A stretch of DNA of 64,000 nucleotides from positions 3,712,001-3,776,000 of the forward strand of contig OY781964.1 of NCBI GenBank assembly GCA_963677485.1, written 5' to 3'. The translations under genes and the position numbers were made by a program. The stretch is from Armatimonadota bacterium (lineage in GTDB: Bacteria; Armatimonadota; HRBIN16). This document shows positions 17,776-49,617 of the stretch, in pieces. The notes under the pieces were generated by a model, which searched no databases, had not been told where the DNA came from, and saw only the letters and a list, made by a program, of their open reading frames with translations. Each line of letters starts with the position of its first letter. The first letter of the stretch is position 1.

Positions 17776-17814
17776 AGCACCGATCCTGAATAAAAACCCT
17801 ACCGGATTTATCCG

Positions 17815-17903
17815 GTCGTCGGGGCGTCCCTTGTGGGCGCCCTACTCGATTGTTCATTCGATAATTCATGTTTTAGGGCGCCCACAAGGGACGCCCCTAC
17901 GAC
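17815..17903. repeat. GTAG-type REP doublet (30-bp inverted repeat, one mismatch)
   Basis: gtcgtcggggcgtcccttgtgggcgcccta ... tagggcgcccacaagggacgcccctacgac. Confidence 0.85.
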
Positions 17904-17949
17904 TAGTTGCTTACAAGGAGACATCACACATCGAAGGCGTGACTGGTTC

Positions 17950-19890: not shown

Positions 19891-19923
19891 CCGCGCATTA
19901 TCTCATATTGACAGGAGACAGAG

Positions 19924-21087: not shown

Positions 21088-21164
21088 GAGAAGAGGAGAA
21101 TAGGAAAAGGCGACCAGTATCTGCAACCGCGTCCTACTCGTCCTACTCATCATACCTGTCCTAC
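21085..21164. repeat. Degenerate 9-mer tandem repeats in inverted arrangement
   Basis: taggagaag/aggagaa/taggaaaag ... gtcctactc/gtcctactc/atcatacct/gtcctac. Confidence 0.5.
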
Positions 21165-21196
21165 GGCGTCACCCGCGAAATGCCGCTCCGTTGCCC

Positions 21197-21246
21197 TTGA
21201 CACCACTTAATCATATATGTATACTCATTATAATGAGTATACATAT
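21197..21246 (+). promoter_or_regulatory. Near-consensus sigma70 promoter (TTGACA-N17-TATACT) with a perfect 32-bp palindromic operator
   Basis: -35 at 21197-21202, -10 at 21220-21225; atatgtatactcattataatgagtatacatat at 21215-21246. Confidence 0.85.
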
Positions 21247-21263
21247 TCGGCAAGGACGGCAGA

Positions 21264-23307: not shown

Positions 23308-23317
23308 GGAGAACACC

Positions 23318-24649: not shown

Positions 24650-24655
24650 CAGATG

Positions 24656-24691
24656 GGCTGTCGAAGGGGCAGTGTTGCCCCTTCGATGGCC
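24656..24691. terminator. Intra-operon hairpin
   Basis: ggctgtcgaaggggca-gtgt-tgccccttcgatggcc; no U-tract. Confidence 0.5.
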
Positions 24692-24709
24692 GTCACATAG
24701 GAGATTTGT

Positions 24710-25738: not shown

Positions 25739-25746
25739 GAGGCGGC

Positions 25747-28590: not shown

Positions 28591-28708
28591 CGACGAGGTA
28601 GGCCCCTAACCGCGAGGTGCGATACAATGACCGATAGTAATACACGATGTTCGGCATGTGCTGACCGATCAGTGCCATGCATGTTATGAGTAAACAAGGT
28701 GAACTGAC

Positions 28709-31444: not shown

Positions 31445-33282
31445 TGAGTTTAACAATAAACGAAAGACCATCTGGCGCGGGATTAGATATCGCTGGCGTG
31501 CAGCTGACGATGGTACGGTATCCGGCAGGAGCGACGGAGACCGAACGGTTTGCCGCCTCCGAGCTGGCCCGCTATCTGCAGAAGGCCTGCGGGGTCGAGT
31601 TCCGTCTATCGGAGGGCTTACCCGGCGCCGGGGTGCTGTTCGTGAGTGCTTCGATCCCGCCCGGGGTCAGCACCAGGTTCCGCAGAGATGGTTATGACAA
31701 GGCTTTTGTCACCGCAAAGGGTGGCTGCGTCTACCTGGTCGGCGAAAACAAACGGTCTGCGCTGTATGCCGTCTACGACTTCCTGCAGCAATACATCAAG
31801 ATCGAGTTTTTCGGGCCGGACGAATCACATGAGCACATCCCGCCGGTGAGTCACATCACGCTGCCGGATTCACTGAACGCCAAATACGGCTCTGATATGG
31901 AGCTGCGGGATTACTTTACCAGCGTGCCTGAATCGATCGACTTCATGGCGAAGAACCGCGTCAACATCATCACCGTCGGGCAGGACATCGGTGCCGGGCT
32001 ACCGAAGCCGCCATCACCGGCAGATGCTATACGAAAACGGGGTCTGCTGGTAAGAGGGCCGATCCACGACTGGCACTTCTTCATGGTTGATGCCAAGCTT
32101 TTCGATACTCACCCCGAATACTTTCCCATGGTCGATGGGAAGCGTACGGTGAATGGCCGCACGGCTTGTTTCTCGAACCCGAAGGCTGTGCAGATATTCA
32201 TGGACAACTGGCGTGAGTATGTGCGAACCAACCGTGGTGCCTGGGATGTGATCACCTATTTCCCCGAGGATGTGCCCGATGAGCATTATTGCGGCTGCCC
32301 CGAATGCATCAAGGAGCCCAACGCCAACTGGTATGCCATGCTGGTATGCAAGGCCGGGAAGATCGTGGAGGAAGAGGCACCGGGCACCAGGATGGAGTTC
32401 TGCGCCTACCACTCGCTGCGGACGCCGCCGACGCGTAAGGTGGAATACCCCTCAAGCGGGCGTAACTTGATCGTGAACATGAGCCTGGGGTACGACCGCG
32501 ACCTGTATGAGCCTCTGAACAGCGATAATAAGCTCAACCGGCTCGTAGATGGCATGTTGGACAAGCAGCTAGCCTATCTGGCTTCATGTGGATTCAAGGG
32601 CACCGTGCTCATGCAGGACTACTACAACCTGTGCGAACTGCCTGGGATGGGGCCTAGAACCCATTCGTTCCTGTGGCCGGTCGATGTGATCAAGAAGGAC
32701 ATGCAATACTACAAGAAGCGCGGGGTCACCGCCGTTGCCGACTGGGTGCTCTACAACAAGATGTGCTTCCCGAACCCATACATGATGTGGGCTTGGCTCA
32801 AGGTATGGTCGGATGGCAGGGTTGATTTGGCGAAACTGGAGGCCAGGTTCTACCCGGCATATTACGGAGCTGCAGGGAGCAAGGTTCGGTCGTATATCCA
32901 CCGCCTGACCGGGCTGATGCACGAGCTGGTCTCAGTTGATTACGAACGCAATCTAGTCCAACTCGAAAAGCTGGTCAAGGGCCTGGATGGTATCCGCACA
33001 TCAATGCTTTCTGAGCGCGAACGCCACCATATCGAGGTGCTGAAGGTGCATGGCCTTTACTGTGTTTTGCTGAAGAAGGCGTATCATGCCATCGTGACCG
33101 GTGGTCAGGCCCAAAGCGAGGCTTACCGGAAAGAGTTCGCGTTATTTTTCACGGAGACCCATGGCACGCTGTTGAAGGATGAGATCGACCCCAATATGTT
33201 CGGCACCGACTATTGGTGGTTTTGCGTGAACGCCTACCAGGGGTTCGACAAGACCATGGCCACCGACCAGAGGCTGCATTGA
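31441..33282 (+). CDS. DUF4838-like protein (GH20/67-type N-domain plus TIM barrel)
   Basis: FAASELARYL, ALYAVYDFL, F..HPEYF, CFSNP, C.C.EC, F.AY. Confidence 0.72.
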   Translation: MMSLTINERPSGAGLDIAGVQLTMVRYPAGATETERFAASELARYLQKACGVEFRLSEGLPGAGVLFVSASIPPGVSTRFRRDGYDKAFVTAKGGCVYLVGENKRSALYAVYDFLQQYIKIEFFGPDESHEHIPPVSHITLPDSLNAKYGSDMELRDYFTSVPESIDFMAKNRVNIITVGQDIGAGLPKPPSPADAIRKRGLLVRGPIHDWHFFMVDAKLFDTHPEYFPMVDGKRTVNGRTACFSNPKAVQIFMDNWREYVRTNRGAWDVITYFPEDVPDEHYCGCPECIKEPNANWYAMLVCKAGKIVEEEAPGTRMEFCAYHSLRTPPTRKVEYPSSGRNLIVNMSLGYDRDLYEPLNSDNKLNRLVDGMLDKQLAYLASCGFKGTVLMQDYYNLCELPGMGPRTHSFLWPVDVIKKDMQYYKKRGVTAVADWVLYNKMCFPNPYMMWAWLKVWSDGRVDLAKLEARFYPAYYGAAGSKVRSYIHRLTGLMHELVSVDYERNLVQLEKLVKGLDGIRTSMLSERERHHIEVLKVHGLYCVLLKKAYHAIVTGGQAQSEAYRKEFALFFTETHGTLLKDEIDPNMFGTDYWWFCVNAYQGFDKTMATDQRLH

Positions 33283-33498: not shown

Positions 33499-34818
33499 CT
33501 ATGTCAGCAAAAGGCAGGGATTCTCTAGTATCTCCTTCAGCCTGGCGAAGAACTCGGCGGCGGGAACGCCGTCCATGATCCGGTGGTCGAATGACAGGCA
33601 AAGGTTCATCATGGCGCGCTGCTTAATCTCCCCGCCGCAAATCACCTGCTTCTCTGCGATCCGACAAACGCCCAGGATGGCGGCCTGACCAGGGGTGATG
33701 ATGGGGTCGAATTGGTCGATACCATATGCACCCAGGTTGGAGATAGTGAAAGTACCCCCGGTGAAGTCATCTGGGGTCGATTTTCCCGCGCGGGCACGTG
33801 CCACGATCGCTTTCAACTGAGTGGAGATGTCGGGCAAACTCGTGGAGGTCACACTCTTGATCACAGGCACGACAAGCGCACCCTCTACCGCGGTGGCGAC
33901 TCCGATTTTGATCTGCTCGTGGATAATGATCTCCGTATCGGTCAGCGAGGAGTTTACTATGGGCCTGTCTTGGATGGCCCTACCAACAGCCTTGACGATG
34001 ATGTCTGTGTACGAGATTCGCACCCCGCCGTGGGCCTCTATGTCTTTAAGTATCCGGTTGCGGAGCGCCACGCACTCCGTCATATCTACCTCAATCACGA
34101 GGGTCACATGCGGTATACATTGGGCACTCTTCATCACATTGTCGCCGACCGCTTTGCGTCTGCCGGTGTATGGGATACTTGAACCTAGTCTTACACTACC
34201 TGGGGCTGTCTGAGCAGGGGAAACGGCCTGGTGGATGTCCGCACTGGTCACCTTGCCGCCGATACCCCTGCCGGACACCGCATGGATATCTATCCCCATC
34301 TCGGCAGCCATCTTACTGGCGAGTGGTGTGACTTTCGGTGCGGACTTGAGGTAGTCCTCCACATCCCGTTGGATGATGCGCCCGTTGGGGCCGGTGCCGC
34401 GTGATGACAACTTCATGATGTCGAGGCCATGCTCTTTGGCCACGCGTCGGGCGGCTGGTGACGCGAATAGCCTGTCAGCATCTGGCTGATCGATGACGAT
34501 GTTTGACACTTGGACATCAGATGTGTCAGGAGCCGCTTGTTCTGGAGCAGGGGTGGTGATCTCAGGCTCTATAGATTCATCAGCCGTCCCGATGATGCAG
34601 ATGGGGTCTCCCACAGGAATCACGTCATCAGCTTGTGCAGTGATCTTGCGCAGGATGCCGGTCTCTGTGGCTTCTACCTCAAGGTTCGTCTTGTCGGTCA
34701 TCACCTCAAGCAGCAACTCGCCAGCCTTAACATGATCGCCCTCGTTCTTGAACCATTGGACAATGGTGCCTTCTTCCATCGTCTGACCTAACGCGGGCAT
34801 CAATATCGTCATCGCCAT
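33499..34818 (-). CDS. Dihydrolipoamide acyltransferase E2 (AcoC/PdhC-like; one lipoyl and two subunit-binding domains)
   Basis: EVMTDKTNLEV lipoyl motif; two ASP/TP.A...GID...G.G..G modules; TFTISNLG; DHRIMDG. Confidence 0.93.
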   Translation of the reverse strand: MAMTILMPALGQTMEEGTIVQWFKNEGDHVKAGELLLEVMTDKTNLEVEATETGILRKITAQADDVIPVGDPICIIGTADESIEPEITTPAPEQAAPDTSDVQVSNIVIDQPDADRLFASPAARRVAKEHGLDIMKLSSRGTGPNGRIIQRDVEDYLKSAPKVTPLASKMAAEMGIDIHAVSGRGIGGKVTSADIHQAVSPAQTAPGSVRLGSSIPYTGRRKAVGDNVMKSAQCIPHVTLVIEVDMTECVALRNRILKDIEAHGGVRISYTDIIVKAVGRAIQDRPIVNSSLTDTEIIIHEQIKIGVATAVEGALVVPVIKSVTSTSLPDISTQLKAIVARARAGKSTPDDFTGGTFTISNLGAYGIDQFDPIITPGQAAILGVCRIAEKQVICGGEIKQRAMMNLCLSFDHRIMDGVPAAEFFARLKEILENPCLLLT

Positions 34819-34842
34819 GATTTACCATCCAATCCTGTTTGT

Positions 34843-35676
34843 CTATCGGGGAGTTGCATCGGGAAGGCCGCCGTCCACCGGAATGGTGGCGCCTGTGGTG
34901 GGCGTCTGGTGCGACACCAGGAACAACACCGCATTCGCCACGTGTTCTGCGGTGACTTGCGCTTTCAACAGGTTGCGGCTCTGGTAATACTCCTCCAGCC
35001 CCTTCTCGTCCAGCCCACGTGCCTTCATTCTGCCCGGCCCTACCTCTTGCCATAGACCTGACTTGCGGGCACCATCGGAAAACACCGCATCGGGTGCGAC
35101 CATGTTCACACGCACGCCGATGGGGGCCAGTTCCAGGCTGGCGATGCGCGCCAACTGGTGCGCCGCGGCCTTGGTCGCGCTGTAGGCACCAAATGTGGCT
35201 CCCGGAGCAAACACGTTCTTGGTAGAAACAAGCACGATGTCGCCGCCATCGCCTTGCTCTTCAAACACGCGCGCCATCTCGCTCAAGACCAACAACGTGC
35301 CCTCGACATTGATCTTTTCCAACTTTTGGAACGCCGTCAGTGCCATATCTTTCAGTGATGACACATGTGCCACTCCGGCATTTATGACGGCGATCTCGAT
35401 GCTTTTCCATTGTGACTTGATGACCACCACTGCTTCAGCAACCGAAGCCGGGTCGGTCACGTCCATCGGCACGCCGATGACCCGGTCTCCAAATCGGGCA
35501 GACAACTCCGCCACCAAGCCATCCAGCCGCTCGCCTGGCAAGTCGGTGACGGCCACTCGGCAGTTCGCCTCAAGCAAGCCGCGGCTGATGCCTGCGCCTA
35601 TCGCGCCTGCGGCTCCGGTCACAAACGCCACGCGCCCATCTAGGTCGTAACGGCATACTGCTTTTTTGTAACTCAT
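34843..35676 (-). CDS. Short-chain dehydrogenase resembling the C-terminal (RhaW) domain of bifunctional rhamnulose-phosphate aldolase/dehydrogenase
   Basis: TGAAGAIG, NAG, STKNVFAPG, YSATKAA, RVNMVAPDAVF, YYQSRNLLK. Confidence 0.85.
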   Translation of the reverse strand: MSYKKAVCRYDLDGRVAFVTGAAGAIGAGISRGLLEANCRVAVTDLPGERLDGLVAELSARFGDRVIGVPMDVTDPASVAEAVVVIKSQWKSIEIAVINAGVAHVSSLKDMALTAFQKLEKINVEGTLLVLSEMARVFEEQGDGGDIVLVSTKNVFAPGATFGAYSATKAAAHQLARIASLELAPIGVRVNMVAPDAVFSDGARKSGLWQEVGPGRMKARGLDEKGLEEYYQSRNLLKAQVTAEHVANAVLFLVSHQTPTTGATIPVDGGLPDATPR

Positions 35677-36389
35677 TTGGCACTCCTGATGATATTTAAC
35701 ATCGATATGGCGTTATCGTGGGGTGTCTTACCATCGTATACAGCACTTCCGGTGACCACCACATCCGCGCCCAGTTTCGCAATCTCTACGATGTTCTCTT
35801 TAGTGATTCCGCCATCCAGGCAGATCAGAATATCTCTATCGGCAATAAGTGTGCGCAACTGTACCATTCGTTCGGACGTGGCGGCGATGAACTTCTGACC
35901 GCCCCAGCCCGGGTTGATGCCCAGCAGTGTGACCATCTCGATCTCATCGAGCAGCGGCTCGATGGCCTGCATGGGTGTTCCTGGGTTGATGGCTAACCCG
36001 CGGACAATCCCTCTGTCTGGGTCGTTCGCATTCGCCATCTTACCCAGAGCTTGGAACACGCGATGGATATGGGTTGGTTCGCTTTCCCAATGCACAGTGA
36101 GAATATCCGCACCGGCAGCCACAAAATCTGCAAGTTTGTTCAGCGGCTCATTGATCATCAGGTGGATGTCTTTGAGCAAATTCGTCTTGATTCCCTTGAT
36201 GAACGGCGGGCCTATTGTCATGGACGGGCAGAAACACCCGTCCATGACATCGAAATGGAGGATGCCGACCCCCGTGTTCTCCAGAGCCGTCAGCTCATCC
36301 CCAAGCTTCATCATACTGGCGGTCAGTATGCCGACACTAATTGAAGGTGTCAAGGCTCTGAGTGTTTGCATCACGGGAGTAAGCGGCAT
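35673..36389 (-). CDS. rpe: Ribulose-phosphate 3-epimerase family protein
   Basis: HFDVMDG.F, DIHLM, GADILTVH.E, INPGTP, NPGWGGQKF, LDGGI, VTGSA. Confidence 0.88.
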   Translation of the reverse strand: MPLTPVMQTLRALTPSISVGILTASMMKLGDELTALENTGVGILHFDVMDGCFCPSMTIGPPFIKGIKTNLLKDIHLMINEPLNKLADFVAAGADILTVHWESEPTHIHRVFQALGKMANANDPDRGIVRGLAINPGTPMQAIEPLLDEIEMVTLLGINPGWGGQKFIAATSERMVQLRTLIADRDILICLDGGITKENIVEIAKLGADVVVTGSAVYDGKTPHDNAISMLNIIRSAK

Positions 36390-36390
36390 G

Positions 36391-37272
36391 TCAGGCCTTC
36401 CTGTTTTTCTCGGTGAGATAGAATTCGTAGGCGTGTTCAGCGCATAGCCCTTCATGAACCACCTTGCGCACGGCCTGGATCATAGGAATGGGGCACTCGG
36501 CTTGGAAGATGTTGCGGCCCATGTCCACGCCGCAAGCTCCCTGTTGGATCGCGTTGTAGGCCATCTTCAAGGCGTCAAGCTCGGGCAGCTTCTTGCCGCC
36601 GGCTATCACGATTGGCACGGGGCATGAGGCCGCCACGGTGTCGAAACCCTCTTCCACGTAGTAGGTCTTCACGTAGGTTGCTCCCAGTTCGGCGCACATG
36701 CGGGTGGCGAGCCTCATATAGCGTGCGTCGCGCGCCATATCCTTGCCAACAGCGGTGACGCCCAGGGTGGCGATGCCGTAGCGGTTGCCCATGTCGACCA
36801 GCCTGGTCATGTTATGAATGGACTGCGACTCGTATTCGCCACCCACAAACACCTGCACGGCCATCGCCGCGACGTTCAAACGGATCGCTTCGTCGATGTC
36901 GATGGCGATCTGCTCATTGGATAGCTCCTTCAGGATGCTCGGTCCGCCGCTGGCTCGCAGCACGATGCCGCGGGTAAACGTGGGAGGGATCACCGAGCGC
37001 AGCACCCCGCGGGTGAGCATTAGGGTGTCAGCGTAGGGGAGTAGCGGCAGGATGTTGACGTCAATTCTTTCAAGGCCGGTGGTCGGTCCCTGGAAATATC
37101 CGTGGTCGATGGCCAGCATGACTGTCTTGTTTGTGTTGGGATCGAAAATCTGGGATAGCCTGTTTTTCAGGCCCCAGTCCAGGTTATTGCATCCCTTTAG
37201 CGGGTAGACCGTATTGGTCTGTGGGATATCCAGATAGAAGTTTTTCTCTTCGCGTGCATCTGCTTCCGGCAT
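36391..37272 (-). CDS. lsrF: LsrF-like 3-hydroxy-5-phosphonooxypentane-2,4-dione thiolase (class I aldolase fold)
   Basis: [37 protein letters not shown] (Schiff-base Lys), [19 protein letters not shown]. Confidence 0.92.
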
Positions 37273-37339
37273 TCTGATCTCCTTCTGTGGGCCTTCTTGG
37301 TTGGTTATCTCAAGTGATGAAATTCATCAGAACTATCAC

Positions 37340-37392
37340 TTGACAATGTAACATCCTTACAGTATCCTGTCAAGTAGTGAAATGACATTACA
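37340..37392. promoter_or_regulatory. Overlapping divergent sigma70 promoters with two RpiR/HexR-like operator boxes
   Basis: Plus strand TTGACA 37340 / TATCCT 37363; minus strand TTGACA 37373-37368 / TACATT 37350-37345; boxes TGTAA-N5-TTACA (37347-37361) and TGAAA-N5-TTACA (37378-37392). Confidence 0.7.
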
Positions 37393-37417
37393 TTTCATCA
37401 ACGACAAAGAGGGTTAT

Positions 37418-38305
37418 ATGACACCGGAAATAGATGCATCTAAAACTGAATTATCGAAGGGCACGGTCTTTTCCCGCATCCAAAGTATGTCCGCCAGCGG
37501 CAAAAAAAGTGTGACGGCCATCTCCGCATATGTGCTTCAGCATTCTGAGGCTGTGCTTCAGATGACCCTAACTGAACTGGCCACCCGTGTGGGCACCAGC
37601 GTGGCGAGTATCAGCCGTTATTGCAGCATGCTGGGTTATGAGAACTATCGGGCGTTTCAGATCGACCTGACTGCCTCCCTGGCTAATAACGCCACTTCCG
37701 TATCTGACCTGTTTGGATCGGAAGATGATACATCGACCATCATCAAGCGGGTTTTTGAGATGAATCGGCAGGGACTGGCCGACACAGAATCGCTGATGAA
37801 GCATGATGATATGGTAGAGGTGGCGAAACTCATCACCGCATCTCGAAGACTGTGTCTGCTGGGAATAGGCAGTTCAGGGCTGGTAGCCAGATCAAGTGCG
37901 CTAAAGCTGGCCAGTCTGGGTATTACAGCACTGGCGATTACCGACCCCTATGAGGGGATACTCACCCTCTCATCATCAACATGCGAGGACGTGTTGATAG
38001 CCATCAGCCACTCTGGACGCAGCGGACTCATCATTGAGCTGCTTGAGATTGCCAAAGAGAAAGGTGCCCGCACGGTGGGGATCACCAACTACTCAGACAC
38101 CACACTCGCCAACCAGTGCGAGTTCACTTTCCTGACCTCATTCCGTGAACGGCGCATCAATGCCGCCGTCTCCTCATCCAGCATTGAGCAGTTGTGCATT
38201 TTAGATGCGCTCTATTTTCTGATCGCACACCTGCAAGGGCCGATATCTGAATCAATGGTAATGGAAATCGAGACGAACGCAGAACGAATCATCCGAGCAA
38301 GGTAA
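37418..38305 (+). CDS. RpiR/MurR family transcriptional regulator
   Basis: HTH LTELA...TS.ASISR.C..LGY; SIS domain GIGSS, ISHSG, ITNY. Confidence 0.92.
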   Translation: MTPEIDASKTELSKGTVFSRIQSMSASGKKSVTAISAYVLQHSEAVLQMTLTELATRVGTSVASISRYCSMLGYENYRAFQIDLTASLANNATSVSDLFGSEDDTSTIIKRVFEMNRQGLADTESLMKHDDMVEVAKLITASRRLCLLGIGSSGLVARSSALKLASLGITALAITDPYEGILTLSSSTCEDVLIAISHSGRSGLIIELLEIAKEKGARTVGITNYSDTTLANQCEFTFLTSFRERRINAAVSSSSIEQLCILDALYFLIAHLQGPISESMVMEIETNAERIIRAR

Positions 38306-38334
38306 CATACCAAACACACAAGGAGAACCTGTAG

Positions 38335-39678
38335 ATGTATCAAACCTATTACAACCCTGAAATCTTCTGCCAGACCTTCGATGGTATCGACCGTGACAAA
38401 TATGTGGTCGCCACATATTACATGGATGACTGCTTGCCTGGCGAGGATTTCATCGACCATTTTGCACTCGTTCAGGCGATGGCCCTGGAAGGCTCCACCG
38501 GCACATGGGAGAAGGTCGAAGAAGACACGCCCGAAATGCGCGAGGTCTATTCCTCCAAGATGGTGGGTTATTTTGAGCTGCCGTCGGATGACCCCAGCCG
38601 AAAACGGGCGATCGTTCAGCTTGCCTTCCCGCTGGCCGCATGGGGCAACAACATCACGATGATGCTTCTGGCCATCGCGGGCAACTGTTTTGCTTACAGC
38701 CCTTCGATTCGACTGCTGGACGTCTATCTCGGTGAGAACATTCTTAAGGGGTTCCAAGGACCGAAATTCGGCGTGCAGGGCATCCGCGACATCCTCGGTG
38801 TGGAAAAACGGCCTCTGTCGCTTCATATCATCAAGCCCAAAATGGGGATGACACCCGAGCAGGTGGCTCATCAGTGTTATCAGACCGCTATCGGCGGTGT
38901 CGACATGATGAAAGACGACGAGATGACCTCGGATGTCTCCAACAGCAATTACCTTGATCGTCTTAAAGCGGTGAATATCGCGCTGGACAAAGCGGAGAGC
39001 GAGACGGGCAAGCGCCCTATCTATCTGCTATCCATCACCCACGAGCCAGAAAAGATGAAAGAGCGTGCCTACAAGGCGATTGATGCTGGTGCTAACGGGC
39101 TGCTGGTCACCTATTCGGCTGGCCTGGGCGCATTGCGCGAACTGACCGAAGACCCCAAGATCAATGTGCCTGTGATGCTGCACGCCTCGCATATGATCGC
39201 TTCGTTGAAGAGCGTGTCATGGCCGGTAGGTGCCAAACTCTGCCGCCTGTGCGGTGCTGACCTTATGCTCACACCCACCATGTGGAGCTCCATCCCCATG
39301 GTGTCGCTTGAAGAGGGCGTACGCACCAGTCACATGCAGTTGGCACCTCTCGCTCACATCAAGCCGACCTTCGCGATGCCTTGCGCCGGGGTCTACCCAG
39401 GGCTGGCTCCCATCCTGGTCGGCGAATACGGCACGGATATCGTGATCCCCGCCGGTGGAGGGATGCTCGGGCACCCGGACGGCTACACCGCCGGTGCGAA
39501 GTCCTGGCAGCAGGCGATCGCTGCCACGATGAGCGATGAACCATTCATCGAGTATGCCAAACGGCCAGAGTGCGGTGAGCTCAGGAGAGCCATCAGCAAG
39601 TGGGGATACCTTGAGCGACCGAAGAGCCCATGGCTGCGTGTGGCACCAAAGTTCCACCCGAAGCATATGGAGCTGTAG
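38335..39678 (+). CDS. RuBisCO-like protein (Form IV RLP)
   Basis: EGSTGTW, AGN, GPKFG..GIR, IIKPKMG, MKDDE carbamylation motif, AGGGMLGHP; lacks the loop-6 Lys and the HR motif; no small subunit or PRK gene. Confidence 0.93.
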   Translation: MYQTYYNPEIFCQTFDGIDRDKYVVATYYMDDCLPGEDFIDHFALVQAMALEGSTGTWEKVEEDTPEMREVYSSKMVGYFELPSDDPSRKRAIVQLAFPLAAWGNNITMMLLAIAGNCFAYSPSIRLLDVYLGENILKGFQGPKFGVQGIRDILGVEKRPLSLHIIKPKMGMTPEQVAHQCYQTAIGGVDMMKDDEMTSDVSNSNYLDRLKAVNIALDKAESETGKRPIYLLSITHEPEKMKERAYKAIDAGANGLLVTYSAGLGALRELTEDPKINVPVMLHASHMIASLKSVSWPVGAKLCRLCGADLMLTPTMWSSIPMVSLEEGVRTSHMQLAPLAHIKPTFAMPCAGVYPGLAPILVGEYGTDIVIPAGGGMLGHPDGYTAGAKSWQQAIAATMSDEPFIEYAKRPECGELRRAISKWGYLERPKSPWLRVAPKFHPKHMEL

Positions 39679-39690
39679 AGTTCCTTCTAG

Positions 39691-39729
39691 ATGGGGGTAG
39701 ATCATCAGACACAGTTGATCTACTCCCGT
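39691..39729 (+). terminator. Intergenic stem-loop after the RLP gene
   Basis: atgggggtagatca ... tgatctactcccgt (G-U pairs allowed). Confidence 0.5.
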
Positions 39730-39809
39730 ATCCCGACCAACACATACCGGCAGCTTACCGACCATGTGCGCAGATTGATGTGCCGCACACCTATACAGGG
39801 GAATGATCG

Positions 39810-41297
39810 ATGACGACGGCAAAGCGGTTTTTGGCATATGACATTGGGGCATCTAACGGACGGGCCGTGGTGGGGGAATTTGATGGCGAGAAACTAACCT
39901 GTCGCGACATCTACCATTTCCCTAACGACCCCGTGCATGTGCCAGGTGGATTTCACTGGGATATTTTTCGGCTGTTTCACGAGGTCAAGCAGGCATTATG
40001 GGCTTACCGTTCGGAATGCGGTAGTGAGCTGGATGGCATCGGGATTGACACCTGGGGAGTGGACTTCGGCCTATTCGACAGAAACGGCAGACTGCTGGGA
40101 AATCCGCACCACTACCGTGACAGCCGCTGCGACGGCGCCGCCGAGGAACTCAGGCAGATCATCAACGGGTATGAGCTGTTTCAGCAGACCGGTGTGGCGA
40201 TTCAACAGGTAGCCACTATCACTCAGATGTATGCGTATGCGAAGAACAAGTCGCCCCTGCTGGAGGTGGCCAAGTCGTTCTTGATGATACCGAGTATCTT
40301 CAACTACTACCTGACCGGCGAGAAGGTGGATGAGCATTCCAATATATCCAATACCGCCTTGCTGGCCATCAAGGACAACGCCCCTGCCAAGGGGGTGCTG
40401 AGTGCCATCGGCATCTCGCGCAATATCCTGCCTCGGTTTGTGATGCCTGGAGACACCATAGGATTGCTTCGAGGACGGGTGGCGGATGAGCTAGGTATGG
40501 GTTCGGTGCCGGTTTTTGCTCCAGCGACGCACGACTCCGCGAGTGCGGTGCTATCGATACCGGCTGATCCCACCACCAACTGGGCGTTTTTGAGCTGCGG
40601 AACCTGGTCGGTGCTGGGTGTAGAGACCGATAAGCCGATTCTCGGTCCCCGCGCCTATGAGCTGAACCTCACGAGTGCCGCCACCGCTGACGGCAAGTAT
40701 ATGTCGCGCTTCAATATCAACGGGCTTTGGATATTGCAGGAGATTCGCAGGGCGTGGGAGGGGCAGGGCAGCCGGATGAACTGGAAGGGCATGGTGCGTG
40801 TGGTGGCATCCACTGAGCCGTTCACCGCGTTCATCGATGTGGACGACCCTGCCTTCGCCGATCCGGTAGATATGCCCACGGCGATCATTGAGTATTTGAC
40901 AGCTACAGAGCAGCGGATTCCGGGCGATAAGGGCACGATGGTGCGTATTGTGCTGGAGAGTCTGGCAATGAAATATCGCTTCCTGCTGCGCCAGATCAAA
41001 GAGCTGTCTGGGAAGCCGATTGACGTGCTGCACATCGTGGGTGGTGGTGTGAAGAACACAGTGCTGTGCAGCCTGACAGCCAGCGCGGTCGGGATTCCGG
41101 TTGTGGCCGGCCCTATGGAGGCAACCTGCAGCGGAAACCTGCTTACCCAGATGATGGGTGCAGGCATTGTAAAGACGATAGACGAGGGGCGCATGTTGCT
41201 GCGTTCCTCCTACGACCTGACTTTGTACAAGCCACACCGTGCTAAAGCATGGGACGAGGCCTATCAACGATACCTGACAGTGACAGGGAGGAAATAG
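39810..41297 (+). CDS. FGGY sugar kinase, rhamnulokinase-like
   Basis: DIGASNGR, IGIDTWGVDF, YRDSR, ATHDSASAV, SCGTWS, NINGLWILQE, VGGG, AGP.EAT..GN. Confidence 0.92.
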   Translation: MTTAKRFLAYDIGASNGRAVVGEFDGEKLTCRDIYHFPNDPVHVPGGFHWDIFRLFHEVKQALWAYRSECGSELDGIGIDTWGVDFGLFDRNGRLLGNPHHYRDSRCDGAAEELRQIINGYELFQQTGVAIQQVATITQMYAYAKNKSPLLEVAKSFLMIPSIFNYYLTGEKVDEHSNISNTALLAIKDNAPAKGVLSAIGISRNILPRFVMPGDTIGLLRGRVADELGMGSVPVFAPATHDSASAVLSIPADPTTNWAFLSCGTWSVLGVETDKPILGPRAYELNLTSAATADGKYMSRFNINGLWILQEIRRAWEGQGSRMNWKGMVRVVASTEPFTAFIDVDDPAFADPVDMPTAIIEYLTATEQRIPGDKGTMVRIVLESLAMKYRFLLRQIKELSGKPIDVLHIVGGGVKNTVLCSLTASAVGIPVVAGPMEATCSGNLLTQMMGAGIVKTIDEGRMLLRSSYDLTLYKPHRAKAWDEAYQRYLTVTGRK

Positions 41298-41299
41298 AA

Positions 41300-42280
41300 A
41301 TGCTTGGTAAGAACAAACTGGGTGCGTGCCTTCCAACGTTCGGCTCATGTGCCGACAGATACTGCCTCTCGGGGTATGGTGGGGGTGGCACCACGATGGA
41401 GGAGATGCTGGACCTAGCCACTCAGGTCAAGCAGCTTGATGGCCTTGAGATCGTGGGTAACTGGCATGTGAATGACCAAAACATCGATCTGGTGAAAAGG
41501 CTGTTCGCAGAGCGTAACCTTGAAATCAGCATGGTGGTGCCGGATCTGTGGACTCAAGCGAAGTGGGGCAAGGGTAGCCTCGCCTCCCAGGATCCACTGA
41601 TTCGCAAGGCGGCGGTGGCGGAAGTGAAGAAGTCGATGGACTGGGCTGCGGGGGTTGGCTGCTCGTATGTGGATGTTTGGCCCGGGCAGGACGGTTATGA
41701 CTATCCGCTTCAAGCGGACTTCACTGAGGCCTGGAAATGGATGAAAGACGGGATTGAGGATTGTGCGGCCCACCGCACCGATGTGAAGGTGCTGGTGGAG
41801 TATAAGCTCAAGGAGCCTCGCACGCATTGCTATATCAACAGTGCCGCGAAGACGATCCTGCTGATTGACGGACTGCCGAACACCGGTGTGCTGCTGGATA
41901 TCGGCCACTCGATGGCTGCGGGCGAGAACATCGCGGAAGCGGCGGCATTGCTAGATGACTACGGATGCCTTGATTATCTTCATCTGAATGATAACTACCG
42001 CGTGTGGGACGATGACATGATGTTCGCCGCGGTGAATATACCGGAGACTCTAGAGTTCATATTCTGGCTGAAGAAACTCAACTACACCGGATGGCTGACG
42101 CTGGACATCTTCCCATACCGCGAAGACAAAATACCGGTGGTGGAGAACTGCTTTGCCTGGCTGACGACGTTGATGGCGGCGGTCGAAAAGAAGGGCGTTG
42201 CCGAAATTCAGGCTGTGCTGCGATCGGCCGACGCCAACCGCAGCGTCGCGCTGGTCCGCGAATTGCTGACAGGGGGATGA
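41300..42280 (+). CDS. Xylose-isomerase-like TIM-barrel sugar isomerase
   Basis: WPGQDG, EYKLKEP, DIGH, HLND, WDDD, LDIFP metal-binding motifs; GGAGG RBS. Confidence 0.88.
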   Translation: MLGKNKLGACLPTFGSCADRYCLSGYGGGGTTMEEMLDLATQVKQLDGLEIVGNWHVNDQNIDLVKRLFAERNLEISMVVPDLWTQAKWGKGSLASQDPLIRKAAVAEVKKSMDWAAGVGCSYVDVWPGQDGYDYPLQADFTEAWKWMKDGIEDCAAHRTDVKVLVEYKLKEPRTHCYINSAAKTILLIDGLPNTGVLLDIGHSMAAGENIAEAAALLDDYGCLDYLHLNDNYRVWDDDMMFAAVNIPETLEFIFWLKKLNYTGWLTLDIFPYREDKIPVVENCFAWLTTLMAAVEKKGVAEIQAVLRSADANRSVALVRELLTGG

Positions 42281-42284
42281 TACG

Positions 42285-43286
42285 TTGACTCATGAAACAC
42301 GCGACCTGAGAGGCCGTGAACCCGAACAAGAGATATCGGCTGATAGGCTGCTGGCCATGTACAAAACCATGGTTAGGATCCGCCGGTTCGAAGACACCAT
42401 ACACCTGAGATTCCTGAAGGGCACACTGCCTGGAACAGTTCATCTATATCAGGGGCAGGAGGCCGTGGCGGTCGGTGTGTGCGCACATCTGAACGAACAA
42501 GATGCCGTTGCCAGCACACACAGGCCGCATGGCCACGCCATAGCTAAGGGTGTGAGTCTGCGGTCGCTGATGGCGGAGCTTTACGGCAAGGAAACGGGTT
42601 GCTGTAAGGGAAAAGGCGGGTCGATGCACGTGGGCGATGCTTCTGTGGGTATGCTGCCGGCTATCGCCATCGTGGGTGGCGGACTTACCATCGCCACAGG
42701 CTGTGGACTGGCCTTCAAGATGCAGAAGAATCACAACGTGGCAATCGCCTTTCTAGGTGATGGTGCGTCCAACGAGGGTGACTTCCATGAGGCACTGAAC
42801 ATGGCCGCGATATGGAATCTGCCGGTGGTGTTCGTGTGTGAAAACAACCTGTATGGTGCTTCCACTAGCCTAAAGCTTGTGTGCAAGCTGGAGGATATCG
42901 CCGACCGTGCAGCCAGTTACGACATGCCATCGTCGATCTGCGACGGTAATGACCTCTTCTCAGTGTATGGGGCGTTGGCTGAGGCTGTGGAACAGGCACG
43001 CTCTGGCGGCGGCCCAAGCCTGGTGGAGTGCAAGACCTACCGTATCGGCGGACACTCCCGTTCAGACGGCAACGCTTACCGTGACAAAGAAGAAGAGAAG
43101 CTCTGGTTTGAGCACGACCCCATTCGAAACTTGCAGACAAAGCTGATCAGCATGGGCGTGATGACAGAACCCGACATCGCACGCATCGATGATGAGATCG
43201 AAAAAGAGATCGAAGATGCGACGGAGTTTGCGGTGAACAGCCCGCTTCCTTTACCGGACGAGTGCTTTACGGACCTCTGGGCATAG
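42285..43286 (+). CDS. ThDP-dependent dehydrogenase E1 alpha subunit (AcoA/PdhA-like)
   Basis: HLYQGQEA, HRPHGH, GKGGSMH, GDGASNEG...ENN, TYR..GHS. Confidence 0.93.
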   Translation: MTHETRDLRGREPEQEISADRLLAMYKTMVRIRRFEDTIHLRFLKGTLPGTVHLYQGQEAVAVGVCAHLNEQDAVASTHRPHGHAIAKGVSLRSLMAELYGKETGCCKGKGGSMHVGDASVGMLPAIAIVGGGLTIATGCGLAFKMQKNHNVAIAFLGDGASNEGDFHEALNMAAIWNLPVVFVCENNLYGASTSLKLVCKLEDIADRAASYDMPSSICDGNDLFSVYGALAEAVEQARSGGGPSLVECKTYRIGGHSRSDGNAYRDKEEEKLWFEHDPIRNLQTKLISMGVMTEPDIARIDDEIEKEIEDATEFAVNSPLPLPDECFTDLWA

Positions 43287-43298
43287 GAGAAGAGAGAT

Positions 43299-44318
43299 AT
43301 GAAAAAACTGTCATACGCCGAAGCGATACGGGAAGGCATCAAAGAGGAGATGCAGCGCGACCAGCGCGTGTTCTGCATCGGTGAAGATATTGGGGTGGAG
43401 AATGGCTTTGGTGGAGCCTTTACGGTCACCCTTGGATTGTCCGACATCTTTGGGCATGAGCGTATCCTCGATACCCCCATTTCGGAAGCAGGTCTGGCGG
43501 GGGCCGCCATCGGTGCTGCTATGATGGGCATGCGCCCCATCGCCGATGTGCAGTATTGCGATTTCCTGTTCTGCTGTATGGACCAGATGATCAATGAGGC
43601 TCCGAAGATGCGTTACATGTCCGGTGGCGGTTTTTCGGTGCCGATGGTGATGCGCGCTCCTGTGGGGGTGACCGCCCGCGGTGCCCAGCACGCCCAGAGC
43701 GTGGAGAGCTATTTCATGCACTGCCCAGGTTGGAAGATCGCCTGCCCTTCGAATGCATACGATGCGAAAGGCATACTCAAAACAGCCGTGCGGGATGACA
43801 ACCCGGTGTTGATATTTGAACACAAAAAGTTGTATGGTGCCAAAGGCATCCGCAAGGTGGAAGGCGCACTGGATGCCTCCAGTGATATCCCAGAGGAAGA
43901 CTACACCATCCCCGAAGGCAAGGCGCGGATCGTCCGAGCGGGTAAGCATGTGACCGTGTTGGCCAACCTCAGGATGGTCTACGAGGCCGGTTTCGCCGCC
44001 AGTGAACTAGCGGAAGAGGGCATTGAAGTGGAGCTCATCGACCCACGCTGGCTGGTGCCATTTGACTATGAGACGCTGTATGCCTCTGTGAAGAAGACAG
44101 GCCGACTGGTGGTAGTGCATGAAGACACCATCACGGGCGGATGGGGTGCTGAGATCGCCGCGAAGGCGATGTTCGATGTGTTCGACTATCTTGATGCGCC
44201 GGTCTGGCGTGTCGCCGCGCCAGATACCCCTGCACCCTTCTCGCCTCCATTGGAGGATGTGTATGTGCCGAGTAAGGAGCGCATCAAGCAGGCGATACGG
44301 AAGATCTGTTATCGGTGA
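43299..44318 (+). CDS. ThDP-dependent dehydrogenase E1 beta subunit (AcoB/PdhB-like)
   Basis: GEDIG, DTPISE, RYMSGG, AQHAQ, DDNPV.FEHK, KKTGR, LDAP. Confidence 0.93.
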   Translation: MKKLSYAEAIREGIKEEMQRDQRVFCIGEDIGVENGFGGAFTVTLGLSDIFGHERILDTPISEAGLAGAAIGAAMMGMRPIADVQYCDFLFCCMDQMINEAPKMRYMSGGGFSVPMVMRAPVGVTARGAQHAQSVESYFMHCPGWKIACPSNAYDAKGILKTAVRDDNPVLIFEHKKLYGAKGIRKVEGALDASSDIPEEDYTIPEGKARIVRAGKHVTVLANLRMVYEAGFAASELAEEGIEVELIDPRWLVPFDYETLYASVKKTGRLVVVHEDTITGGWGAEIAAKAMFDVFDYLDAPVWRVAAPDTPAPFSPPLEDVYVPSKERIKQAIRKICYR

Positions 44319-44878
44319 GAACTGGTTACATCTTCGACTTTGACGGTGTGCTGGTCGATAGCATTGAAGTGCATTGGTCCAGCTTCATGCCAGCCTGTTC
44401 AGAAGTGGGTATACATGTAGACAGGGACAGACTTGTCAGATACAACGGCATCCCGGTAATCCAGCAGATTGAGCTGTTTGCAGGCCACTCCAACGTTCAG
44501 GTGAATGCAAATGCAGTATTCGATCGATATTCAGAAAACTATGCCCTGCAGTCAATAGAAGATGTGGTCATCATCGAGCCCATGTTAGGGATAATGCGTG
44601 CATTATCCCTTGCCGGTTGCTCGGTGGCCATTGCATCTAGCGGCTCACGGGAGCACATTCAGGCGATTGTAGACAAGTTTGCCATTCCATGCGAGATCAT
44701 TGTCTCGAATAACGATGTGAGCAACGGCAAGCCAGACCCCGAGATATTCCTTACCGCCGCAGCAAGGTTGGGCATCTCTCCCGAGAACTGCGTGGTGTTT
44801 GAAGACTCAGATATAGGCATTCAGGCCGCCGTGCGCGCAGGAATGGCTACCCTGCATTTCCGACAGCACGACGACTGA
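44315..44878 (+). CDS. HAD-family phosphatase (beta-PGM/CbbY-like)
   Basis: FDFDGVLVDS, IASS, KPDPEIFL, VFEDS. Confidence 0.9.
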   Translation: MRTGYIFDFDGVLVDSIEVHWSSFMPACSEVGIHVDRDRLVRYNGIPVIQQIELFAGHSNVQVNANAVFDRYSENYALQSIEDVVIIEPMLGIMRALSLAGCSVAIASSGSREHIQAIVDKFAIPCEIIVSNNDVSNGKPDPEIFLTAAARLGISPENCVVFEDSDIGIQAAVRAGMATLHFRQHDD

Positions 44879-45062: not shown

Positions 45063-45557
45063 ATGAACAAGTCGAAGGTTATCACTATACTCGTATTCAT
45101 CGGGATTACAGTGACCGGGGTGTACTGGCTGATGGACATAAATCGCAGCGAGCATTATTATATATATCTCCCTGGAGGATTTGTATCCTATAGAGATGAG
45201 TATGGTGCGATATTCAAAAATATTCGCCTTCAACCGCCACCTTCAAAGAAACGGTATATAGGCCCTAATGTGGGTGGATATCACGTATATCAATCTGCCA
45301 TCGTAGGGAAGATAACACCGCATCCCAATGACCAGGATTTATCGCAGATGAATATCAGCCACGACTTATACGAAAGACGGCCCGGCTATTTCATCCTTGA
45401 TCTACGCACGAAAGAGGTGTATGGCGGTTTGAATAAGCACAACTGGATACTGAAGTTAAAATCCTACGGCATCACCGAGGAGCCGGAGTTATACGAACCC
45501 TCCTGGCGGGACGAAAAGCTGAGGCGTAATGAGCCGCAAGCCGACATTGTGGAGTAA
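45063..45557 (+). CDS. Small membrane-anchored hypothetical protein (DUF3997-like), AT-rich
   Basis: N-terminal TM helix; LPGG.., I.P.V, YFILD...EVYG.L pattern; AT-rich codons. Confidence 0.6.
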   Translation: MNKSKVITILVFIGITVTGVYWLMDINRSEHYYIYLPGGFVSYRDEYGAIFKNIRLQPPPSKKRYIGPNVGGYHVYQSAIVGKITPHPNDQDLSQMNISHDLYERRPGYFILDLRTKEVYGGLNKHNWILKLKSYGITEEPELYEPSWRDEKLRRNEPQADIVE

Positions 45558-49506: not shown

Positions 49507-49617
49507 GTTTGTGTATCCTCTCAATGCTGATGCGTCGGTGCTACCTACCACGATACAGCCATGGCGTATGCTTGTGCAATGGTTGATTTGGCCTTTTGTT
49601 TGCACATTCTGACCAAA

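Follow-up and report, generated by a model that had tools for sequence, protein, structure and literature searches.

To our knowledge, only a handful of functions have been assigned to RuBisCO-like proteins (RLPs), namely those of an enolase, a 1,3-isomerase, a decarboxylase, a transcarboxylase/hydrolase, and an oxygenase. In the methylthioadenosine (MTA)-isoprenoid shunt of Rhodospirillum rubrum, the RLP is reportedly a 5-methylthioribulose-1-phosphate 1,3-isomerase, which is said to shift the carbonyl of its substrate to form 1-methylthio-(xyl/rib)ulose-5-phosphate, leading to 1-deoxyxylulose 5-phosphate. Autoinducer-2 is processed in the Lsr system by LsrK, LsrG, and LsrF, the last of which cleaves a 2,4-dione into dihydroxyacetone phosphate (DHAP) and acetyl-CoA. 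The E1 component of acetoin dehydrogenase cleaves methyl ketols, and the fuculose and rhamnulose kinases act on O1 of methyl-ended ketoses. Other comparable systems are the salvage of 5-deoxyribose through the DHAP shunt (DrdK, DrdI, and DrdA; PMC6079011) and the catabolism of D-apiose, which employs an isomerase, a kinase, and a split transketolase, with the RLPs OiaX and OiaT in oxidative routes (in part PMC6302742). Here, a gene cluster is described from a 64,000-nucleotide stretch of DNA (the window) that covers positions 3,712,001-3,776,000 of the single-contig 5.22-Mb genome (G000) of a soil-type Armatimonadota bacterium. The cluster combines an RLP with an LsrF-type protein, an FGGY kinase, a presumed sugar isomerase, and the E1 and E2 components of a complex that depends on thiamine diphosphate (ThDP) and lipoyl groups. 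Judged from its genes, it appears to serve sugar catabolism with an RLP of a new subfamily and with E1/E2 and LsrF in unusual roles, and very probably constitutes one functional and so far undescribed catabolic system. No paper on an RLP with LsrF, a rhamnulokinase-like kinase, or E1/E2 was found in a literature search that largely left out subscription journals, and a recent description is possible.

The eleven genes of the cluster form two divergent operons, and both the open reading frame (ORF) calls and the domain searches agree with the positions given to them in an initial annotation of this DNA. The minus-strand operon has the order lsrF, rpe-like, short-chain dehydrogenase/reductase (SDR), and E2, and the plus-strand operon has the order rpiR, RLP, FGGY kinase, isomerase, E1 alpha, E1 beta, and HAD. 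In window coordinates, the features are as follows:

33499-34818, minus strand: E2 dihydrolipoamide acyltransferase, terminal gene of the minus operon (PF00364, lipoyl; PF02817, E3-binding; PF00198, 2-oxoacid_dh)
34843-35676, minus strand: stand-alone SDR (NF006194, 400.6 bits, profile positions 436-703 only)
35673-36455, minus strand: Rpe-like ketose-phosphate 3-epimerase paralogue (PF00834)
36391-37272, minus strand: LsrF-type protein of the 3-hydroxy-5-phosphonooxypentane-2,4-dione thiolase family (NF006081, 492.8 bits; cut-off 297)
37339-37373, no strand: 35-bp conserved intergenic block (alignment of four orthologous intergenic regions)
37382-38305, plus strand: RpiR/MurR-family regulator (HTH_6 and SIS phosphosugar-binding domain)
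38335-39678, plus strand: RLP of a separate form-IV clade (PF02788, RuBisCO_large_N; PF00016, RuBisCO_large)
39810-41297, plus strand: FGGY kinase of the rhamnulokinase/fuculokinase branch (TIGR02627, 373 bits; cut-off 528)
41249-42280, plus strand: xylose-isomerase-like TIM barrel, presumed aldose-ketose isomerase (PF01261)
42285-43286, plus strand: ThDP-dependent E1 alpha (PF00676)
43299-44318, plus strand: E1 beta (PF02779 and PF02780)
44315-44878, plus strand: HAD-IA hydrolase of the beta-phosphoglucomutase family, accessory (PF13419)
45703-49605, minus strand: GH106, beyond HAD and convergent with the plus operon (domain search)

The 109-bp gap between lsrF and rpiR contains the 35-bp block, which is invariant or nearly so in four genomes with diverged flanks. 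The block comprises two overlapping divergent sigma-70-like promoters, with hexamers matching at 10/12 positions on each strand, and a palindrome, TGTAA-N5-TTACA, that is likely to be the RpiR operator. Because this single divergent promoter block is conserved, both operons are probably controlled from one regulated site. Both the block and its core palindrome occur only once in the 5.22-Mb genome; a whole-genome regulon search with the two retrieved the cluster's own site alone, and no transporter or glycosidase was tied to the regulator in this way. The longest ORFs of the rpe-like gene and lsrF overlap by 65 nt (36391-36455), and an overlap of 49 nt (41249-41297) exists between those of the kinase and isomerase. 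Given these overlaps, and domain matches that begin at residues 39 and 23, the true starts of the rpe-like and isomerase genes probably lie further downstream.

The cluster recurs well beyond this genome. A homologue search with the RLP yielded 27 related loci, all from metagenome-assembled genomes (MAGs), of which 26 were usable; L028, with a 54-residue RLP fragment at a contig end, was left out. Neighbors were counted up to 10 kb on each side of the RLP by tblastn with the window proteins and a few extra queries, and 10 of the 26 loci are shorter than 20 kb, with contigs that end inside the flanks. The most constant partner was the isomerase (24/26), followed by E1 alpha or beta (20/26), the FGGY kinase (19/26, including 18 RhaB-like kinases and one XylB-like kinase in L018), RpiR (16/26), E2 (13/26), and a URO-D-like gene (12/26). 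LsrF, the Rpe-like protein, and the SDR were each found at 4/26 loci, HAD and a GH140-like protein at 3/26 each, and GH106 at 0/26. The wide co-occurrence of the genes supports the initial annotation on this point. The grouping is not fortuitous: at the 26 loci, which come from several phyla, the RLP is again accompanied by these families. The distant locus L018 contains ten of the eleven genes, all but HAD, on one strand in the order LsrF-RLP-E2-E1a-E1b-Iso-FGGY-RpiR-Rpe-SDR. Gene order differs among lineages, which suggests selection on the gene set rather than the inheritance of one block. In L007, an Armatimonadota relative, four genes (a class III aminotransferase, two Amidohydro_2 proteins, and an SDR; 12320-16108) are inserted between the kinase and two isomerase copies, and the upstream side carries a gene of the class II aldolase family together with a DeoR regulator in place of RpiR.

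The loci are labeled as Acidobacteriota/Terriglobia, Planctomycetota, Armatimonadota, Anaerolineae (Chloroflexota), Acidimicrobiia (Actinomycetota), "Bacteroidaceae" (Bacteroidota), or unclassified, and the cluster is patchily distributed over at least six phyla. Within the phylum of the window, the RLP was present in 11 of 401 sampled genomes (10 of 300 among the high-quality ones). Patchy occurrence, together with an RLP identity of 59-75% across phyla, points to horizontal spread. The RLP clade is abundant in metagenomes of soil, peat, and bioreactors, from which hundreds of close homologues were retrieved. Four metatranscriptome libraries of four studies (X16, X18, X19, and X20) contain short contigs that match the RLP with 0 differences, and the RLP, kinase, and isomerase with 0-1 differences. 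Such libraries may also include DNA, and the parts of the cluster that are uncovered in the four RNA runs carry no information; the matches give a weak hint that the cluster genes are transcribed in bioreactor communities.

The RLP belongs to the RuBisCO large-subunit superfamily (PF02788, 35.8 bits; PF00016, 137.6 bits; both above cut-off), and it falls under every NCBIfam cut-off. Its scores were 269.3 bits with the MtnW model NF007095 (cut-off 409), 220 bits with the MtnW model TIGR03332 (cut-off 513.6), 220 bits with the form III RuBisCO model (cut-off 497), and 136 bits with the OiaX model NF042437 (cut-off 700). The best solved relatives, at approximately 190-200 bits each, are form III RuBisCO and the MtnW proteins of Bacillus and Geobacillus, and a plasmid search with the RLP returned nothing above 33% identity. 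Trees were built from 17 clade members, representatives of 1702 proteins retrieved at E<=0.001 from a library of 1.84 billion proteins, and named plasmid references (two MtnW, four RLPs located beside four-carbon acid-sugar kinases, and one Thiodictyon RLP). The window RLP clade formed a single branch (support, 97-99), with nameless sisters at about 41-53% identity nested alongside, and was separate from the MtnW/K123 clade (100), the kinase-linked RLPs (100), a Photo-like clade (100), and a bona-fide-like group (99). An approximately unbiased (AU) test rejected an exclusive clade of the window RLP and MtnW (p 4.6e-56), a grouping that was picked after the first tree. In support of the initial annotation, the RLP groups neither with MtnW nor with the other named clades included. 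The RLP also differs from the apionate RLPs in its OiaX score, and it occupies another part of the tree than the four RLPs beside four-carbon acid-sugar kinases, which form their own clade; no such kinase domain occurs among the cluster genes. An unnamed group with K123 and L177, which is sister to MtnW and has the window RLP outside it, may represent the R. rubrum-type RLP clade ("DeepYkr").

The active-site columns, fixed by alignment and named by the standard RuBisCO position numbers, read as follows:

Window clade (17/17): N123, K175, K177, K201, D203, E204, H294; A/G/C/P at 295, M298, L327, S/A at 334, C/S at 379; G381, G403, G404
Bona-fide-like sequences: N123, K175, K177, K201, D203, E204, H294; R295, H298, H327, K334, S379; G381, G403, G404
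Named MtnW: K123, K175, V177, K201, D203, E204, H294; P295, S298, L327, S334, S379; G381, G403, G404

Nine bona-fide-like representatives read R, H, and K at positions 295, 327, and 334, the residues by which bona fide RuBisCO carries out carboxylation and holds the second phosphate. The MtnW proteins of Priestia and B. velezensis have K123 and V177, whereas the window clade has N123 and K177. By these columns, the RLP keeps the metal/carbamate center, the RuBisCO-type N123/K175/K177 set, and the first phosphate (P1) site with its glycines, with small or hydrophobic residues in place of the second site and of the loop-6 Lys334. This pattern suggests a monophosphate substrate with a non-polar tail, and a RuBisCO-like enolization at C3 instead of the C1 enolization of MtnW. 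As in the R. rubrum shunt, the RLP would act on a ketose 1-phosphate with a non-polar end, and the expected product is a 1-substituted or 1-deoxy pentulose 5-phosphate. In contrast to that shunt, the substrate would be supplied by a xylose-isomerase-like enzyme and an FGGY kinase instead of MtnP/MtnK and MtnA, the cluster has no cupin methylsulfurylase, and the product would be delivered to E1/E2 and not to isoprenoid synthesis. Furthermore, the window RLP carries N123 and is placed in a different clade, in trees that contained no named R. rubrum sequence.

Among solved structures, the kinase is most similar to FucK of S. pneumoniae (4c23, 275 bits) and RhaB of E. coli (2cgj, 249 bits), and it missed the NCBIfam cut-offs for both rhamnulokinase (the TIGR02627 score listed above) and fuculokinase (TIGR02628, 127 vs. 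471 bits). With these relatives, it is expected to phosphorylate O1 of a ketose. The isomerase showed weak matches, under the cut-offs, to xylA_Arthro (TIGR02631, 77.9 vs. 447 bits) and RhaI_grampos (TIGR02635, 73.1 vs. 531 bits); its best solved relative is the uncharacterized 3ktc (193 bits), followed by class I xylose isomerases at about 70 bits. A plasmid search with the isomerase retrieved relatives at 33-38% identity, and the two contexts that were opened were uninformative. Protein Atlas look-ups for the isomerase and the URO-D-like protein returned generic family names only. Elsewhere, the genome encodes a closer RhaB-like paralogue (476.6 bits), four class II aldolases, FucI, RhaM, and a canonical RhaA (646 bits). 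The kinase and isomerase of the cluster are thus paralogues in addition to the canonical set, a point that supports the initial annotation, and because the canonical rhamnose and fucose genes are located elsewhere, the cluster is not simply a rhamnose or fucose pathway. It resembles the phosphorylated L-rhamnose and L-fucose pathways (RhaA/RhaB/RhaD and RhaEW) in its isomerase, its 1-kinase, the predicted ketose 1-phosphate, and an SDR that is homologous to the dehydrogenase half of the fusion. Unlike in those pathways, all of the family cut-offs were missed, the canonical genes are elsewhere, the aldolase domain has been lost in the lineage of the window, and the RLP and E1/E2 would act instead of aldol cleavage.

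E1 alpha, E1 beta, and the lipoyl E2 have the standard domain architecture of pyruvate dehydrogenase (PDH)- or acetoin dehydrogenase-type complexes. E1 alpha and E2 missed the PDH equivalog cut-offs (TIGR03182, 360.7 vs. 393.85 bits; TIGR01349, 328.4 vs. 445 bits), and E2 was under every NCBIfam equivalog cut-off; E1 beta passed the PDH E1 beta subfamily model NF006667 (331 vs. 321 bits). The genome has a second full E1a/E1b/E2 set at 4.30 Mb, and the E1 alpha of the cluster is 36% identical to the other E1 alpha. Higher identities (47-52%) were observed with plasmid-borne E1 alphas in acetoin-type or sugar-uptake contexts. That of an Enterococcus plasmid (47.6%) occurs in an acetoin-type context with a sigma-54 regulator, lpdA, E1, and E2. 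In L091 (Rhizobium), L111 (Nitratireductor), and L110 (Priestia), the E1 genes are accompanied by a glucitol-type phosphotransferase system (PTS) transporter, GutM, and SorC, and in L092 (an Arthrobacter plasmid) by FGGY kinases and a sugar ABC transporter. These four contain E1 alpha/beta and E2, with or without E3 and without any RLP, and their E1 alphas are 48-52% identical to that of the window. Lipoyl-dependent complexes that act on sugar-derived ketols may form a wider, little-described class. In an E1 alpha tree of 21 rows made by a quick method, most RLP-linked E1s grouped together (87), and the second E1 of the genome was on a long branch. The complex shares E1 alpha/beta and a lipoyl E2 with acetoin dehydrogenase (AcoABCL), in addition to the identity with the Enterococcus copy. 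It differs from AcoABCL because the window cluster lacks E3 and a sigma-54 regulator, is embedded in a sugar operon, and has as its presumed substrate a phosphorylated sugar ketol rather than acetoin. The HAD gene, whose product scored 114.9 bits with TIGR02009 (cut-off 153), has a start that overlaps the stop of E1 beta by 4 nt.

LsrF matched the E. coli LsrF chains 3gkf, 3glc, and 4p2v with 398 bits over 285 residues, and its score exceeded the equivalog cut-off. By hand count, 66 of the first 103 aligned residues are identical to those of E. coli LsrF (~64%), and the identity to the acidobacterial and L018 copies is 65-69%. That the protein is as near to the E. coli enzyme as to its cross-phylum orthologues argues for the same five-carbon substrate. 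The Rpe-like protein scored 182.7 bits with TIGR01163 (cut-off 212.6) and 170.7 bits with the subfamily model NF004076 (cut-off 165), and is a diverged paralogue with 35% identity to the best other copy in the genome. The SDR matched the rhamnulose-1-phosphate aldolase/dehydrogenase fusion model TIGR02632 with 192 bits. Two genomes of the window's family, G128 and G155, encode full class II aldolase::SDR fusions (NF006194; 875 and 858 bits, with a cut-off of 686), as do L004 and the acidobacterial L070, where the fusion has 702 aa (11533-13641; Aldolase_II and adh_short). The SDR of the window is orthologous to the C-terminal half of these fusions; in the window and a same-genus relative it is a remnant without the aldolase half, a point absent from the initial annotation. 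An NF006194-type SDR was present in exactly the four RLP-bearing genomes of the window's family (G000, G146, G128, and G155) and in 0/9 others.

LsrF was searched for more widely in five genomes without LsrF within 10 kb of the RLP, all MAGs of unstated completeness. Two of these contained an LsrF above the cut-off (494 and 496 bits) on the RLP contig, 10 and 13 kb away and followed by the Rpe-like gene, and no LsrF above the cut-off was found in the other three. In L070, the aldolase::SDR gene follows LsrF-Rpe-like, and GH3, GH28, and GH140-like genes are located between that module and the RLP cluster. LsrF, the Rpe-like protein, and the SDR therefore constitute an accessory module, yet one that is truly linked to the RLP cluster. 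The locus had first been described as a system built on the RLP, LsrF, and E1/E2; LsrF has to be dropped as part of the basis in view of its presence at 4/26 loci and the three further genomes without it. Like the Lsr system, the cluster contains an equivalog-grade LsrF, about two-thirds identical to that of E. coli, and an FGGY kinase. Unlike the Lsr system, the cluster has no LsrG, LsrR, or LsrACDB (LsrG was searched for in the cluster and not genome-wide), its kinase is RhaB/FucK-like, LsrF is accessory, and the dione would arise by SDR oxidation of a deoxy-pentulose phosphate and not from phosphorylated 4,5-dihydroxy-2,3-pentanedione (DPD).

The cluster is tentatively interpreted as a horizontally spread system for a sugar with a non-polar end (methyl, possibly methylthio), the likeliest candidate being a 5-deoxypentose or a precursor of one. 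The four constant enzymes point to an order in which an aldose becomes a 2-ketose, a ketose 1-phosphate, and an RLP product that is split into an acyl-CoA and an aldehyde. A possible route, put forward with similar reserve, is that a methyl-ended sugar is isomerized, phosphorylated at C1, rearranged by the RLP to a 1-deoxy-ketose phosphate, and cleaved to acetyl-CoA and a triose phosphate. The xylose-isomerase-like enzyme would convert the aldose to the 2-ketose, and the RhaB/FucK-like kinase would convert the 2-ketose to the ketose 1-phosphate; this compound or a later phosphosugar would lift RpiR repression at the shared divergent promoter. In the RLP, the 1-phosphate would occupy the retained P1 site, and the methyl end would fit a pocket at the place of RuBisCO's second-phosphate site; the RLP would then enolize C3 by means of the carbamylated-lysine/Mg2+ center and walk the carbonyl along the chain to produce a 1-deoxy-ketose phosphate (a methyl ketol). 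With a branched carboxylated sugar, decarboxylation would possibly precede this rearrangement. The acetoin dehydrogenase-like E1/E2, with a shared E3, would then cleave the ketol oxidatively to acetyl-CoA and glyceraldehyde 3-phosphate. The combination of a ThDP-dependent E1 and a lipoyl E2 requires either a ketol or a 2-oxo acid, whereas an ordinary ketose phosphate could be taken by transketolase; the likeliest substrate of the complex is therefore a 1-deoxy (methyl) ketol. Among the accessory proteins, the Rpe-like protein would epimerize C3, which fits the R. rubrum-type RLP product, reportedly a mixture of C3 epimers. The SDR would oxidize C4 to form 3-hydroxy-5-phosphonooxypentane-2,4-dione, and LsrF would cleave this dione thiolytically to acetyl-CoA and DHAP; the SDR-LsrF pair fits because the known substrate of LsrF results when a deoxy-pentulose phosphate is oxidized at C4. 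The URO-D-like protein, HAD, and the class II aldolase domain would be lineage-specific additions. The 5-deoxypentose logic of the initial annotation (RLP 1,3-isomerization, Rpe, and E1/E2, or oxidation followed by LsrF) is still the most economical, and the hydrophobic second-phosphate site fits it.

Like the DHAP shunt (PMC6079011), the cluster would process a 5-deoxypentose via a 5-deoxy-pentulose 1-phosphate to a triose phosphate and a two-carbon unit. In the shunt, however, the kinase precedes the isomerase, and the two-carbon unit is released as acetaldehyde, whereas here the isomerase would precede the kinase, an RLP and a lipoyl-dependent complex occur in a window without a stand-alone class II aldolase, and the two-carbon unit would stay as acetyl-CoA. 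D-Apiose catabolism (in part PMC6302742) has in common with the cluster an isomerase, a kinase, and a two-subunit ThDP enzyme that act on a rare plant sugar, with RLPs as decarboxylase or transcarboxylase, and GH140-like genes lie near 3/26 of the present loci. Unlike in that pathway, E1 and a lipoyl E2 would carry out oxidative cleavage to an acyl-CoA, and not a transketolase reaction.

Several points weigh against the 5-deoxypentose route. E1/E2 and the SDR-LsrF pair would yield nearly identical products, a redundancy that is unexplained, and the model has no role for the URO-D-like protein (12/26), HAD, or the class II aldolase domain that the SDR carries in relatives. The RLP has N rather than K at position 123, unlike MtnW and the K123 clade (probably of the R. 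rubrum type), and may therefore not carry out the same isomerization. The E1 alpha tree fails to separate the RLP-linked E1s from PTS-linked E1s or those of the acetoin type. Nor is the kinase orthologous at every locus, as it is XylB-like in L018 and none was found within 10 kb in 7/26 loci, and the window cluster has no transporter. We know of no abundant free 5-deoxypentoses. Finally, the neighbors in L007 (two Amidohydro_2 and an SDR) point rather to a 6-deoxyhexose.

A pathway for such a 6-deoxyhexose (fucose-like, rhamnose-like, or rarer) seems rather unlikely. The RLP would turn a ketohexose 1-phosphate into the 3- or 4-keto isomer, E1/E2 would generate a triose phosphate and lactyl-CoA, or lactaldehyde oxidized by a RhaW-like SDR, and LsrF would cleave the 4-oxidized form to DHAP and lactyl-CoA. 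This is in line with FucK and RhaB as the best solved relatives of the kinase, with the homology of the SDR to the SDR half of rhamnulose-1-phosphate aldolase/dehydrogenase fusions (192 bits with TIGR02632 and 400 bits with NF006194), with the two Amidohydro_2 proteins and the SDR of the L007 cluster, the Amidohydro_2 family being one that includes fucono- and rhamnono-lactonases, and with the GH106 rhamnosidase that adjoins the window cluster. However, the genome already contains the canonical RhaA, a closer RhaB-like kinase (477 bits), RhaM, and FucI, the GH106 adjacency occurs in 0/26 other loci, LsrF is very near to an enzyme with a five-carbon substrate, and an Rpe-type epimerase would have no obvious substrate in a six-carbon version. 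A scheme resembling methionine salvage is distinctly improbable. There, a class II aldolase-type dehydratase would form a 2,3-diketone 1-phosphate, the RLP would act as an enolase and HAD as a phosphatase, and the acireductone would be oxidized to a 2-oxo acid, which E1/E2 would convert to an acyl-CoA. MtnW models are the best NCBIfam matches of the RLP, although below cut-off, the coupling of HAD translation to E1 beta echoes the mtnW-mtnX adjacency on Priestia and Bacillus plasmids, L007 and L017 encode proteins of the class II aldolase family, which relatives carry as SDR fusions, and E1/E2 would receive a normal 2-oxo acid substrate. On the other hand, the RLP has N and not K at 123 and K and not V at 177, unlike named MtnW, and the AU test, on a group picked after the first tree, rejects an exclusive clade with MtnW. 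HAD is limited to 3/26 loci, the window cluster lacks an aldolase-family gene, and no cupin dioxygenase was found among the annotated neighbors. A methionine-salvage operon as such was set aside.

Destruction of autoinducer-2 (DPD) or a related diketone in an Lsr-like manner is very improbable as well. The kinase would phosphorylate DPD, the RLP would replace LsrG, and LsrF would perform the cleavage. LsrF is of equivalog quality, an FGGY kinase is present, and enolization of diketo phosphates by the RLP could conceivably serve the LsrG step. However, LsrF occurs in a minority of loci and was not found above the cut-off in 3/5 further genomes, and the constant partners, the isomerase and E1/E2, would be left without a role. 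The kinase scored 66 bits with the LsrK model (cut-off 528), and this score, together with the lack of LsrG and of an Lsr transporter in the cluster, ruled out an lsr operon. It is hardly credible that no single pathway exists at all, and that an ordinary pyruvate or acetoin dehydrogenase and an unrelated LsrF/Rpe/SDR module merely lie beside an RLP-kinase-isomerase operon. E1 beta passes the PDH E1 beta subfamily cut-off, E1 alpha is about equidistant from acetoin-context and other plasmid E1s, and most loci have no LsrF, Rpe, or SDR. Yet E1 adjoins the RLP in 20/26 loci of several phyla in changing order, and the genome has its other full E1a/E1b/E2 set at 4.30 Mb. The E2 gene in the LsrF operon and the E1 genes in the RLP operon are both read from one genome-unique 35-bp divergent block, and the SDR and RLP co-occur in 4/4 carriers and 0/9 non-carriers of the family. 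Beta-elimination of phosphate by the RLP, in the manner of methylglyoxal synthase, to a 1-deoxy-2,3-diulose was also considered possible, but this would leave LsrF without a phosphorylated substrate.

With regard to the source of the sugar, GH106 was rejected as a clue to the substrate. No GH106 homologue was found within 10 kb of the RLP in any of the 26 loci, including the same-genus L002, and the adjacency that had initially been regarded as a sign of a pectic source is not evidence for one. Outside the window, a glycosidase-rich region of G000 (4,505,000-4,535,000) with one GH140-like gene, a pair each of GH106-like and GH127 genes, a URO-D-like gene, and proteins with NPCBM and F5/8 domains is compatible with the breakdown of side chains of the rhamnogalacturonan II type. 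The URO-D-like gene is a frequent member of the RLP clusters that had been missed initially, and it is absent from the window cluster. Its product has weak matches to MtaA/CmuA (56-76 bits; cut-off 235). In L002, the URO-D-like gene follows E1 beta, an adjacency that arose by rearrangement, and a 93% identical orthologue is located at 1.006 Mb in the window genome. The paralogue family is large in G000, with 17 and 15 places matched by two tblastn queries (E<=1e-5).

Aceric acid (3-C-carboxy-5-deoxy-L-xylose) of rhamnogalacturonan II is a possible source sugar, whose isomerization would give a beta-keto acid for decarboxylation by the RLP or the URO-D-like protein. Release of 5-deoxyribose or 5-methylthioribose from other cells would be an equally possible source. 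It is quite unlikely that the cluster encodes a first catabolic pathway for a rare plant or microbial sugar that is both branched and methyl-ended, for example aceric acid. In that version, the RLP (with the URO-D-like protein in many lineages) would decarboxylate the beta-keto acid, in a reversal of RuBisCO carboxylation on a monophosphate, and would then rearrange the product to 1-deoxy-pentulose 5-phosphate, which E1/E2 would cleave to acetyl-CoA and glyceraldehyde 3-phosphate. Since these genomes are rich in glycosidases, the GH140-like/GH106/GH127 region and the GH28 and GH140-like genes of L070 are weak evidence for aceric acid. No paper on the catabolism of aceric acid was found in the literature search, with its limited coverage of subscription journals.

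Other parts of the window were also annotated. Upstream of the cluster, at 14617-33282, a series of large genes on the plus strand, whose families are poorly known (two DUF6259, DUF6785/DUF6784, WbsX/GH99-like, and DUF4838), also includes an amidohydrolase, a GntR regulator, a DegT aminotransferase, and a zinc dehydrogenase, and is probably another glycan-utilization locus. A 164-aa ORF at 45063-45557 had no family match and has five paralogues (40-44% identity) elsewhere in the genome. AAA_14/DUF4143 ATPase genes are located near the RLP cluster in three unrelated genomes (5672-6910 in the window, 4339-5517 in L018, and 7696-9192 in L013), which may be a coincidence or a mark of mobile DNA.

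The RLP clade is abundant and its set of partners is both very constant and unusual; its function is therefore directly testable. If the proposed 5-deoxypentose route is true, a lipoyl-dependent E1/E2 that acts on a sugar phosphate would represent a new mode of sugar splitting in which the two-carbon unit is kept as acetyl-CoA, and LsrF would gain a metabolic role beyond the removal of a quorum-sensing signal. If the aceric acid version is true, it would add a new RLP reaction and would establish 2-oxoacid dehydrogenase-like complexes that cleave sugar phosphates as a class. Should the substrate be a rare pectin sugar or a by-product of radical-SAM enzymes, a gap in the biochemistry of the carbon cycle would be filled.

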